NCBI GenBank assembly: GCA_024641325.1 | Contig: JAHEDJ010000001.1 | Span: forward strand, 151,594-215,593 | DNA length: 64,000 bases | Direction: 5' to 3' | From: a bacterium | GTDB lineage: Bacteria; Actinomycetota; Acidimicrobiia; Spongiisociales; JAHEDJ01 | Part shown: piece by piece, positions 1 through 20,651 of the stretch | Layout of the letters: every line of letters begins with the position of its first letter | Numbering within the stretch: position 1 is the stretch's first letter | The notes under the pieces: model-generated | Databases searched by the model: none | What the model was told of the DNA's origin: nothing | The model's input: only the letters and a program-made list of their open reading frames with translations | Position numbers and translations under genes: made by a program

Positions 1-121
1 ACTGCTTGTCGCCTCTAGTTGTCCGCGCGCTGTGGTCGTAAGTTGAGAGCAGGATGCAGCCGTTCTTGATCACCCAACGCGCCGGGATGCGGCGGGTGCC
101 GAACGAATCGAGAACCACAGG

Positions 122-18511: not shown

Positions 18512-19798
18512 ATGTCTGGAGAACCCGGCGAGATCAACTCGGACCTTGAACACACCCGTACCGCCGTCGATGACTGGCGGGATCTGGGTGACCTGGTTGC
18601 CCTTGCTACCGAACGAGTGACTGCGCCGGTACAGGGCATTCACGATGCAATTGCGCGCCGCTGGTTCGGGATGGCCGGAAGGAGAGCTGCGAACGCTCAT
18701 GAGGCTTACCTCGCATTGATGGCGGGTGTCTATCGGTCGGTGCGCCTTACGGGGACCGCACTGGGGGCAGCCGTCGGATTGGGAGCCGCGACGGCCGCCC
18801 GGCGGAAACCTTTGCGGCCGCTTTGGCGTTCCCGTGCCGTCGGCAGTATCCAGGCCGTCGGCAACGCGGTGTGGGGGGATGAGCTCGAATGCAGGCGCGC
18901 TGATCCACGAACGGAGCTGAACTTGCGGAGTTCCACGGGTGAGCCGATCGGTGCGGAATGCGTCGCACTGGAACAGGGTTTCCCGCATCCTTCTGCGCGG
19001 ATAGTTGTTCTCCTCCACGGCCTCGGAGAGACCGAGCGTTGCTGGCAGGGGCGCACAGCCAGCGGAGTGGCTGCTACCGGACTCGCTGAGGTTCTCGAGG
19101 CCGACTCCTTCACACCGCTACTCATCCGCTACAACAGCGGCAGACACGTATCCGACAACGGGGACGCGCTTGCCGCCCTCATCGACCAGGTCGTGGATTG
19201 CTGGCCTGTAGCGGTTGAGGACATTTCACTCCTCGGCAACTCGATGGGCGGTCTCGTGGCGCGTAGTGCGGTGCACGCCGGTCGATCCGCGGGACATAGT
19301 TGGACTTACTTGACCAGCCACCTCATCACGCTGGGCTCCCCACACCTGGGTGCGCCGCTCGAGAAGTTCGCCAATCTGATTGCGTGGGGGTTGCGCCTCG
19401 CTCCGGAAAGCCGTCCGTTGGGTGAGTTTCTCAATCACCGCAGCGCCGGGATCAAGGACCTCCGTTTCGGTGCCATCCGGGACGAAGATTGGAGCCGGGA
19501 GGACCCCGACGCGCTGCTGAGCGATTCGGTCGGAGATACCCGGTTGCCGGATCACGTCGATCAACACTTCGTGGCTGGGGTCATCACCAGCGTACCCACC
19601 CATCCGGTTGGCGTGCTTCTCGGCGATCTCGTCGTTCGTGCCGGGAGCGGCACCGGCCGTGGTCGTCGTCGCCGGATCGAGGTGGCCGACGTACGTGTAA
19701 TCGGCGGGCGGCGCCACTCCGATCTGCTCCACGATCCTGCGGTTCACGAGCAGGTGAGGGATTGGCTGAGAACGAAGGCCGACAACCGCAATCATTGA
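18512..19798 (+). CDS. alpha/beta hydrolase (lipase/esterase-like, GxSxG)
   Basis: LLGNSMGGLVARSAVH nucleophile elbow in a 428-aa protein. Confidence 0.55.
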   Translation: MSGEPGEINSDLEHTRTAVDDWRDLGDLVALATERVTAPVQGIHDAIARRWFGMAGRRAANAHEAYLALMAGVYRSVRLTGTALGAAVGLGAATAARRKPLRPLWRSRAVGSIQAVGNAVWGDELECRRADPRTELNLRSSTGEPIGAECVALEQGFPHPSARIVVLLHGLGETERCWQGRTASGVAATGLAEVLEADSFTPLLIRYNSGRHVSDNGDALAALIDQVVDCWPVAVEDISLLGNSMGGLVARSAVHAGRSAGHSWTYLTSHLITLGSPHLGAPLEKFANLIAWGLRLAPESRPLGEFLNHRSAGIKDLRFGAIRDEDWSREDPDALLSDSVGDTRLPDHVDQHFVAGVITSVPTHPVGVLLGDLVVRAGSGTGRGRRRRIEVADVRVIGGRRHSDLLHDPAVHEQVRDWLRTKADNRNH

Positions 19799-19952
19799 GG
19801 TGGGCTGCCCTTTCAGAGTCCGCGGCCAAGACGTTCCCAATTTCGAGACTCACGAGATTCGCCAACGGTGAAGGCGAGGGTTCTAACACCTCGGTGATGT
19901 CAACCGAGCGACGGCATCGGACCATCCTGGCGGCTCGGCGGCCTACGATGTA

Positions 19953-20651
19953 GTGACGACTGGAGGTCGTATGTTGGCACCCGACGCTCTCGATCGCGGT
20001 TACTCCGAAATCATGCGCTCGTGCATCGCGACGGGACAAGCACCTCACTTCACCGAACTCGCTGCCTCGCTCGGTATTCCTGTTCCGGAGGCGAGGGCTT
20101 TGGTACACGAACTCGTGTCGCTCACCCCGGGATGGGTGCATCCCGGAACTGATCTACTGGCATCCTTTCCGCCTTTCAACCTCCAGCCGACGCAGTACCG
20201 CGTGTCGGTGGACGGTGAACAACGCTGGTTCGCCCAGTGCGGGTTTGAGGCGTTGGCCATCCGGTGGCTCTTCCCGGGGCAGCAAGTGAGGATCGAAGCG
20301 CCATGCCTGTGCTGCGGCGAATCCATGGTGGTGGAGATGAACGATACGGCGATCACCACCATCGAACCGGAGGCAATGGTCGGCTACACCAGCTCCGAAA
20401 TCGGCGGCGATCCGGCCACCAGGCCATTTCGGTGAGCGAACATGAACCTCTTCCGGTCGGAAGAGCACGCACGCAGTTGGGACCGGTACGACGCGTCCAT
20501 GGCGGCCAGTCTCCGTCCGGTGGCCGAGTGGGCCGACATCTTCAGCAACATCTACTTCAAGGAGCGCGTGCGCCCCGACTTCATATCTTGGGCACGTGGC
20601 GAGTCCGGGAAGCGTGCGTTCGATGAACTTCGCCGTCGGGCACGATCGTGA
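19953..20651 (+). CDS. organomercurial lyase (MerB)-like protein interrupted by one in-frame TGA at 20433-20435; candidate selenoprotein, alternatively a nonsense pseudogene
   Basis: ORFs 19953..20435 and 20442..20651 are in the same frame. RWFAQCGFEALAIRWLFP aligns with MerB YAWCALDTLIFP (Cys96/Asp99), and NLFRSEEHARSW aligns with MerB HFFASVPTAEDW. The TGA falls where MerB has Cys159/Cys160. Confidence 0.45.
20448..20465 (+). promoter_or_regulatory. bacterial SECIS-like hairpin CUCUUCC-GGUC-GGAAGAG, 12 nt downstream of the in-frame UGA
   Basis: Perfect 7-bp stem with apical loop GGUC. The loop G and U lie 23-25 nt from the UGA, as in E. coli fdhF SECIS (loop GGUC, G23/U24). Confidence 0.35.

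Follow-up and report, generated by a model that had tools for sequence, protein, structure and literature searches.

A probable selenocysteine-containing MerB-like enzyme of Acidimicrobiia, encoded across an in-frame UGA followed by an fdhF-like hairpin

Results

We analyzed a 64,000-nucleotide stretch of DNA from an Acidimicrobiia bacterium (GenBank assembly GCA_024641325.1, contig JAHEDJ010000001.1, positions 151,594 to 215,593; referred to as the window) that carries an interrupted gene related to the organomercurial lyase MerB. Two open reading frames (ORFs), 19953-20435 and 20442-20651, share one frame, and between them lie only a TGA codon (20433-35) and the sense codons GCG AAC. The frame is open from GTG 19953 or ATG 19971 up to this TGA and continues beyond it to a second TGA at 20649-51. 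An earlier note on the same DNA had described two ORFs of one frame split by TGA and a perfect CUCUUCC-GGUC-GGAAGAG hairpin 12 nt downstream, both of which can be read directly in the sequence (the hairpin at 20448-65). The note had also let the gene start at 19953, which has to be revised: the true start is most likely ATG 19971, because GGAGG is found at 19962-66 and the N-termini of homologs begin at this Met. The region 19971-20651 on the + strand is thus a single MerB-superfamily gene, not two genes. Its features, including a predicted selenocysteine (Sec) codon and a putative bacterial Sec insertion sequence (bSECIS), are as follows.

19962..19966, + strand: Shine-Dalgarno-like GGAGG, 4 nt before the ATG, read from the sequence; homologs start at the corresponding Met
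19971..20651, + strand: predicted MerB-like selenoprotein gene of 226 codons (Met1-Ser226, with Sec155); genuine TGA stop at 20649-51
20238..20240, + strand: TGC, Cys90, equivalent of MerB Cys96 (HMMER alignment to PDB MerB; codon census)
20247..20249, + strand: GAG, Glu93, where MerB has its proton donor Asp99 (HMMER alignment to PDB MerB)
20433..20435, + strand: in-frame UGA, predicted Sec155, equivalent of MerB Cys159 (TGA in 83/83 loci; alignment)
20448..20465, + strand: putative bSECIS core hairpin, stem CUCUUCC / GGAAGAG of 7 bp, apical loop GGUC at 20455-58
20436..20474, + strand: possible extended SECIS with a lower helix pairing +4..+9 with +37..+42; 4/6 pairs in the window, unproven

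For Pfam scoring of the read-through product, the UGA was replaced by Cys. Residues 70-189, a region spanning the UGA, matched PF03243 (MerB) with 70.4 bits compared with a cutoff of 27 (E = 1.7e-19), and MerB was the only family matched in a HMMER search against all PDB sequences. Alignment to solved MerB chains, with the Cys numbering anchored by the C160S mutant chain 3f2g (SFCS), placed the TGA on Cys159, Cys90 on Cys96 and Glu93 on Asp99. The first Cys codon (20238-40) and the TGA lie 65 residues apart, compared with 63 for Cys96 and Cys159 in MerB. Cys96, Asp99 and Cys159 make up the active site with which MerB binds mercury, a point repeated in the paper describing the MerB-like protein SaoL (bioRxiv 10.1101/2022.07.06.499078). 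The positions of the triad are conserved while the chemistry is changed, with Cys / Glu / Sec (predicted) replacing the Cys / Asp / Cys of MerB, and Glu is present at the Asp99 position in 81/81 registered loci. The NCBIfam cutoffs for authentic MerB were not reached (NF033555: 34.6 vs 200 bits; NF009710: 41.4 vs 193 bits), and relatives of the window protein gave similar scores.

A structural model was computed with AlphaFold2 for the read-through relative P0006, which shares 58% identity with the window protein and carried Trp placeholders at the Sec sites. The model reached a predicted local distance difference test (pLDDT) score of 93.6 and a predicted template modeling (pTM) score of 0.90, with values of 96-98 for the 71 residues following the UGA, the loop before the UGA being the sole uncertain part. 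When the model was compared with the PDB using Foldseek, MerB and MerB2 were the only significant matches (E = 3e-10 to 2e-6, TM score ca. 0.6 over ca. 225 columns). The top 11 matches all belonged to MerB or MerB2 with a probability of 1.00 while the next match had E > 0.1. The model of P0006 shows the full MerB fold including the part after the UGA, and the post-UGA segment is therefore integral to the fold.

A protein homolog search covering 5.8 billion proteins returned 397 homologs. Among the 120 homologs listed, 104 were exactly 154 aa long, that is, cut at the same codon, and shared 65-84% identity. A genome scan in which each of 185,579 species was represented by a single genome detected 240 loci, 80 of which were kept and combined with 2 metagenome contigs and the window to give a set of 83 loci. 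The codon equivalent to Cys159 is TGA in 83/83 loci, whereas the stop codons that actually end these genes are divided among TGA (58), TAG (15) and TAA (9; n = 82, TGA 70%). TGA conservation at this codon is therefore far beyond chance. The residue preceding the UGA is Arg in every locus of the set (PFR-U). Downstream, each locus keeps at least 70 codons of the frame free of stops, unlike the other frames, and the codon-position entropy of 0.85 / 0.79 / 1.34 bits resembles the upstream values of 0.75 / 0.49 / 1.29 bits in that third positions are the most variable, a coding signature. Carriers include Ilumatobacteraceae, Candidatus Microthrix, Microthrixaceae and many Candidatus Poriferisodalis, and an identical copy of the window protein is present on 8 contigs.

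Protein databases mirror this arrangement. An exhaustive search of representatives recovered many fragments that end at residue 90 or 155 or that start at residue 159. A few seemingly full-length JGI entries show W at the Cys159 position; the DNA there is TGA, and the same holds for the codon equivalent to Cys96. More distant full-length homologs (P0122 with 47% identity, P0128, P0131, P0212, P0224 and P0225) carry Cys at both positions, and TGC at both sites was verified in the DNA of three Cys forms (P0122, P0128 and P0131/P0278). One sequence from a JGI contig, P0003 (219 aa), is a TGA form from which exactly the 11 codons of the SECIS hairpin are missing (PFR-TGA-AS…NWDGY); decay of this copy or an error of assembly may account for the gap.

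The hairpin of the window consists of CTCTTCC (20448-54), GGTC (20455-58) and GGAAGAG (20459-65), which form a perfect 7-bp stem-loop after a 12-nt spacer, the loop being G23 G24 U25 C26 with the U of the UGA counted as +1. Its minimum free energy of -9.8 kcal/mol (z = -2.5) is only mildly unusual when taken alone, and the significance of the hairpin stems from its conservation, not from its folding energy alone. Nucleotides +17..+31 (UCUUCC-GGUC-GGAAG, 15 nt) are invariant in 83/83 loci. The codons CTC-TTC-CGG-TCG-GAA, which are 6-, 2-, 6-, 6- and 2-fold degenerate, show zero synonymous entropy, compared with 0.17-2.14 bits for the gene's 41 other columns with a conserved amino acid, and elsewhere in the gene GAG is favored over GAA and CGC over CGG. 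Because synonymous sites are frozen, the hairpin is under selection at the level of RNA and not of the peptide. The equivalent stretch is degraded in the three Cys-form relatives, with energies of -5.1, -3.1 and -3.9 kcal/mol.

Published criteria for bSECIS elements (PMC13188914) comprise a loop of 3-9 nt, a stem of 4-16 bp, G in the first two loop positions, a UGA-to-loop distance of 16-37 nt and a minimum free energy of at most -7.5 kcal/mol. The window hairpin agrees with all of them, having a 4-nt GGUC loop with a GG opening, a 7-bp stem, 19-nt spacing and an energy of -9.8 kcal/mol. For comparison, the E. coli fdhF SECIS sequence was confirmed against 5,419 annotated genomes and folded beside the window hairpin. 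Both are hairpins located in the coding region just after the UGA, and their GGUC apical tetraloops are identical, at +22..25 in fdhF and shifted by 1 nt to +23..26 in the window. In contrast, the window stem is unrelated to fdhF in sequence, is perfectly paired and lacks the bulged U, and its lower helix is weak. The family consensus of the extended SECIS folds at -22.8 kcal/mol (z = -4.1) while the lower helix is weak in the window. The likeness to fdhF claimed in the earlier note is thereby upheld for the tetraloop, and its assignment of the UGA to the catalytic Cys, 65 residues past a first Cys belonging with Glu to the Cys96/Asp99 region, is what the HMMER alignment returned. The note had further named a comparison of orthologs as a check on both codon and hairpin; here, the codon is strictly TGA with Cys (TGC) in distant homologs, scattered stops and frameshifts are lacking, and the hairpin does not vary from +17 to +31. 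Together, the conserved TGA, the invariant hairpin and the alignment to Cys159 support its proposal of a candidate Sec-containing MerB.

A second recoded position was found in relatives. At the codon equivalent to Cys96, 16/83 loci have TGA and the remaining 67 have Cys when counted by motif, while a codon census at fixed offset gave TGC 56, TGT 9 and TGA 16, with 2 loci misregistered by an indel. The window gene itself has Cys (TGC) at this site. Cys thus alternates with an in-frame TGA at both catalytic positions across the family. A complete GCUGGC-loop-GCUGGC hairpin follows the first TGA in 16/16 two-TGA loci, compared with all six pairs being present in 23/67 Cys forms. In the two-TGA loci the loop has G-U at +22/+23 and Leu = CTG and Arg = CGC are fixed, whereas these codons vary in the Cys forms. 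The hairpin energies at this second site, -7.5 to -9.1 kcal/mol, are borderline. Two-TGA hosts are Acidimicrobiia as well as metagenome-assembled genomes (MAGs) labelled Deltaproteobacteria, Desulfobacteraceae, Binataceae and Pseudomonadota. Based on these sequence features, the sixteen relatives are predicted to be two-selenocysteine MerB-like proteins. They are located as follows.

L001: TGA at 349-351 and 547-549
L002: TGA at 529-531 and 724-726
Other two-TGA loci: L025, L028, L033, L041, L043, L050, L057, L067, L070, L071, L073, L078, L081 and L082

Sec-containing MerB homologs have been reported before. SaoL is a MerB-like organometallic lyase selenoprotein (NCBIfam NF040728; Haft & Gwadz, bioRxiv 10.1101/2022.07.06.499078; J Bacteriol 2023) whose Sec162 aligns to MerB Cys159 (bioRxiv 10.1101/2022.07.06.499078). 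SaoL and the present clade are alike in that both belong to PF03243, place Sec (predicted in the present clade) at the Cys159 position by an in-frame UGA, keep the Cys96 equivalent and have Sec rather than Cys in nearly all members. They differ in several respects. The window protein scores 34 bits and its close relatives 22-38 bits compared with the SaoL cutoff of 140 bits. The motif before and at Sec is C-U in SaoL and R-U here, and the acid residue is Asp in SaoL and Glu here. The nine-gene sao locus was not found around the present clade, as judged by clustering and by Pfam analysis of the window neighbors only, and not by a search with the Sao HMMs. The hosts of SaoL are strict anaerobes (Clostridioides, Brachyspira, Syntrophobacter) whereas the present clade is found mainly in Acidimicrobiia (Poriferisodalis, Microthrix and Ilumatobacteraceae MAGs). 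Finally, some members of the present clade, unlike SaoL, have a second predicted Sec at the Cys96 position. By these sequence comparisons the present clade is not SaoL.

Canonical MerB (plasmid R831b; PDB 3F0P, 1S6L) and MerB2 (PDB 5C17) have the fold and the triad positions in common with the clade, which differs from them by an identity of only 15-20%, predicted Sec for Cys159, Glu for Asp99, the lack of the second Cys160 and the lack of a mer operon context. A selenoprotein family named 'Organic mercuric lyase MerB2' was listed for 17 bacterial genomes by Peng et al. 2016 (ISME J; Table S3). The same family appears as 'Alkylmercury lyase MerB-like protein' in reviews of 2022 and 2026, where the exemplar accession is SaoL. 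As predicted for the present clade, it is a Sec-containing MerB homolog; Table S3 gives neither organisms nor sequences for it. The clade is not described in the 2022 and 2026 reviews, the GOS 2008 paper with its supplements, the SaoL preprint or the deep-Sep paper; MerB is not mentioned in the GOS 2008 paper and supplements or in the deep-Sep paper. The earlier note, which did not know MerB as an established selenoprotein family, was out of date on this point and overrated its novelty, since SaoL (2022/23) and the 'MerB2' family (2016) had been published. We therefore rate the Sec-containing MerB as a kind already published with SaoL, and as new the separate Acidimicrobiia clade that lacks a curated model.

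The genomic surroundings of the gene were also examined. Its neighbors in the window encode a PGAP1-like hydrolase, AsnC, Ddl, a Mur ligase, a luciferase-like oxidoreductase, an FAA hydrolase and an ABC transporter. The alpha/beta-hydrolase gene (PGAP1/DUF676-like; 18512-19798, + strand) lies directly upstream, and a different esterase (COesterase / Abhydrolase_3) precedes a Cys-form relative (L087 251-1090), a pairing that is not kept across the 80 loci. Neighborhood clustering of these loci gave no recurrent partner, the largest clusters being antisense shadow ORFs and the gene itself. In the window, such shadow ORFs lie on the minus strand at 20154-20468 (104 aa) and 19584-20141 (185 aa); the equivalent antisense ORF forms the largest 'conserved neighbor' cluster (42 loci), an artefact that arises because the sense strand is conserved. 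A DUF169 gene immediately follows the Cys-form relative of the P0278/P0131 cluster on two independent contigs (in L088, 1466-2152 for the relative and 2218-2937 for the DUF169 gene), and its product may work together with the Cys-type enzymes. No such gene lies beside the Sec forms.

Sponge symbionts of the Poriferisodalis clade have a post-UGA ORF of 217 codons compared with ca. 75 elsewhere (L079 10445-11101, also L074, L076, L077 and ca. 19 more loci of this clade). The addition corresponds to a conserved C-terminal domain of ca. 140 aa (…WRNTARAMIVA…QMGWQGEVADQPAWTAMEQSARAILKC…) for which Pfam gave no significant match, the best being DciA with E = 0.013. In two loci of the same clade ARAGORN placed a 99-nt 'tRNA-Ser(gct)' within the coding sequence of the MerB-like gene (L040 10245-10343, L051 10239-10337); these calls are almost certainly false positives. 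A gap-filling scan of the window for other TGA-interrupted genes gave no convincing candidate. A scan based on GC content at third codon positions was useless at 61.6% GC and missed the MerB-like gene itself.

Discussion

The window gene very probably encodes a selenocysteine-containing MerB-like enzyme that is decoded via an fdhF-like SECIS, a reading that we infer from sequence together with its enzymatic activity and substrate, the physiological role being derived from homology alone. A ribosome reaching the UGA at codon 155 would encounter SelB and Sec-tRNA(Sec) bound to the GGUC-capped hairpin that starts 12 nt downstream. Sec would be inserted instead of termination, and translation would proceed for 71 further codons to the real stop. 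The product would adopt the MerB fold with a metal-binding and catalytic triad of Cys90 / Glu93 / Sec155, in which the selenolate would act as a softer and more nucleophilic ligand. The reaction would most likely be cleavage of a carbon-metal bond by protonolysis, with an organomercurial such as methylmercury as the default candidate substrate.

Several observations weigh against this interpretation. None of selA, selB, selC and selD is found within the 64-kb window or within ca. 1.4 Mb of flanks of the 80 loci. ARAGORN gave no tRNA-Sec in the window and the 80 loci, and tblastn with an E. coli SelD query as well as motif scans for SelA, SelD and SelB returned nothing in the window or any locus. 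Sec genes are therefore not linked to the MerB-like gene. They do occur in related lineages: the cultured Ilumatobacter coccineus, I. nonamiensis and Candidatus Microthrix parvicella are SelD+ SelA+ SelB+ (Peng et al. 2016, Table S1), 15 and 10 selenoproteins are listed for these two Ilumatobacter species (Peng et al. 2016, Table S2), selA, selB, selC and selD are present in all 84 complete Actinomarina genomes, and SelA and SelB are enriched among sponge-symbiont bins. With regard to the RNA element, covariation in the lower helix is no higher than in shuffled controls, and the 5 pairs of the upper stem never vary; for the latter, covariation cannot be shown because the stem is invariant. A gathering-threshold Rfam scan of the window gave no match, an expected and uninformative outcome given the poor coverage of bacterial SECIS elements. 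The structural model is that of a relative with Trp at the Sec sites and not of the window protein. Finally, function is derived from homology to MerB at ca. 15-20% identity with Asp99 replaced by Glu, and neither merA, merR, merT or merP nor a conserved neighborhood was found among the window neighbors or by clustering across the 80 loci. The substrate is therefore possibly not an organomercurial.

Other explanations of the interrupted frame account for parts of these data. If the TGA at 20433-35 were a true stop, with the C-terminal 69 aa produced from ATG 20442 by translational coupling and the Cys159 equivalent lost, one would expect the invariant ATG at +10..+12 seen in 83/83 loci, and gene callers indeed annotate 154-aa and 69-aa products. 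However, Met is also kept in uninterrupted Cys homologs (CGLMHLF, CERMNIF, CNDMHIF) and is thus a structural residue, while ATG 20442 is not preceded by a Shine-Dalgarno sequence. A split gene also leaves unexplained why the codon is always TGA, why it coincides exactly with the catalytic Cys and why the synonymous sites of the hairpin are frozen. Nor does it work for the 16 two-TGA relatives, whose first TGA would call for a third polypeptide that lacks a consistent start, and we consider it very improbable. Programmed read-through, with Trp, Cys or Arg supplied by a near-cognate tRNA and the hairpin serving as a generic stimulator, would fit the conservation of TGA and hairpin and would be in line with the lack of Sec machinery in the window and flanks. 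Yet both recoded positions are those of the metal-ligating Cys residues and have Cys as their sole alternative in homologs, a hallmark of Sec, the hairpin fits the SelB-type bSECIS model with the fdhF tetraloop, related lineages possess SelA, SelB and SelD along with 10-15 selenoproteins, and Cys could be encoded simply by TGC. This scenario appears very improbable.

Decay of a MerB homolog, a pseudogene or a sequencing error would be compatible with P0003 and its missing hairpin codons, but 83 independent loci, whose proteins are 55-84% identical, repeat the same architecture with an intact frame, the downstream part bears a signature of purifying selection and no other stops or frameshifts are present, so that this possibility is effectively refuted. 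Equally remote is an organism-wide alternative genetic code with TGA meaning Trp or Gly. Both TGAs of P0006 and P0008 were indeed translated as W by the JGI gene caller; this reading is refuted by TGA terminating the gene itself (20649-51), 58/82 orthologs and many ORFs of the window, and TGG never occurs at the two positions while Cys does in homologs. Insertion of Sec at codon 155 remains by far the most probable reading.

NCBI annotates members of the clade as a 154-aa 'organomercurial lyase', and no NCBIfam model exists for it. Hundreds of such entries and the orphan 69-aa ORFs would be halves of one selenoprotein, and because the clade has no model this annotation error will keep spreading. 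The use of predicted Sec in place of Cys at the MerB metal site would be extended from the anaerobe-restricted SaoL to abundant and largely aerobic Acidimicrobiia, including sponge symbionts, and the lack of a sao or mer context raises the question of which substrate is handled. The natural series of Cys/Cys, Cys/Sec and Sec/Sec at the two mercury-ligating positions of a single family offers a test of the role of selenium in carbon-metal cleavage and mercury release. Moreover, E. coli SelB may be able to decode the 15-nt invariant SECIS with its fdhF-type GGUC loop, in which case heterologous expression would be feasible.

More speculatively, and with a rather low likelihood in our view, these proteins could be stand-alone, mer-independent lyases for organomercurials (methylmercury) in aerobic Acidimicrobiia that live in soil, wastewater, seawater and sponges, in which selenium would confer very high mercury affinity and about one fifth of lineages, including some Deltaproteobacteria/Binataceae MAGs, would have a diselenol site. 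If true, this would represent an unrecognized demethylation route, one that merB-based environmental surveys would miss or mis-score because database copies end at 154 aa, or at 89 aa in case of the two-Sec forms.

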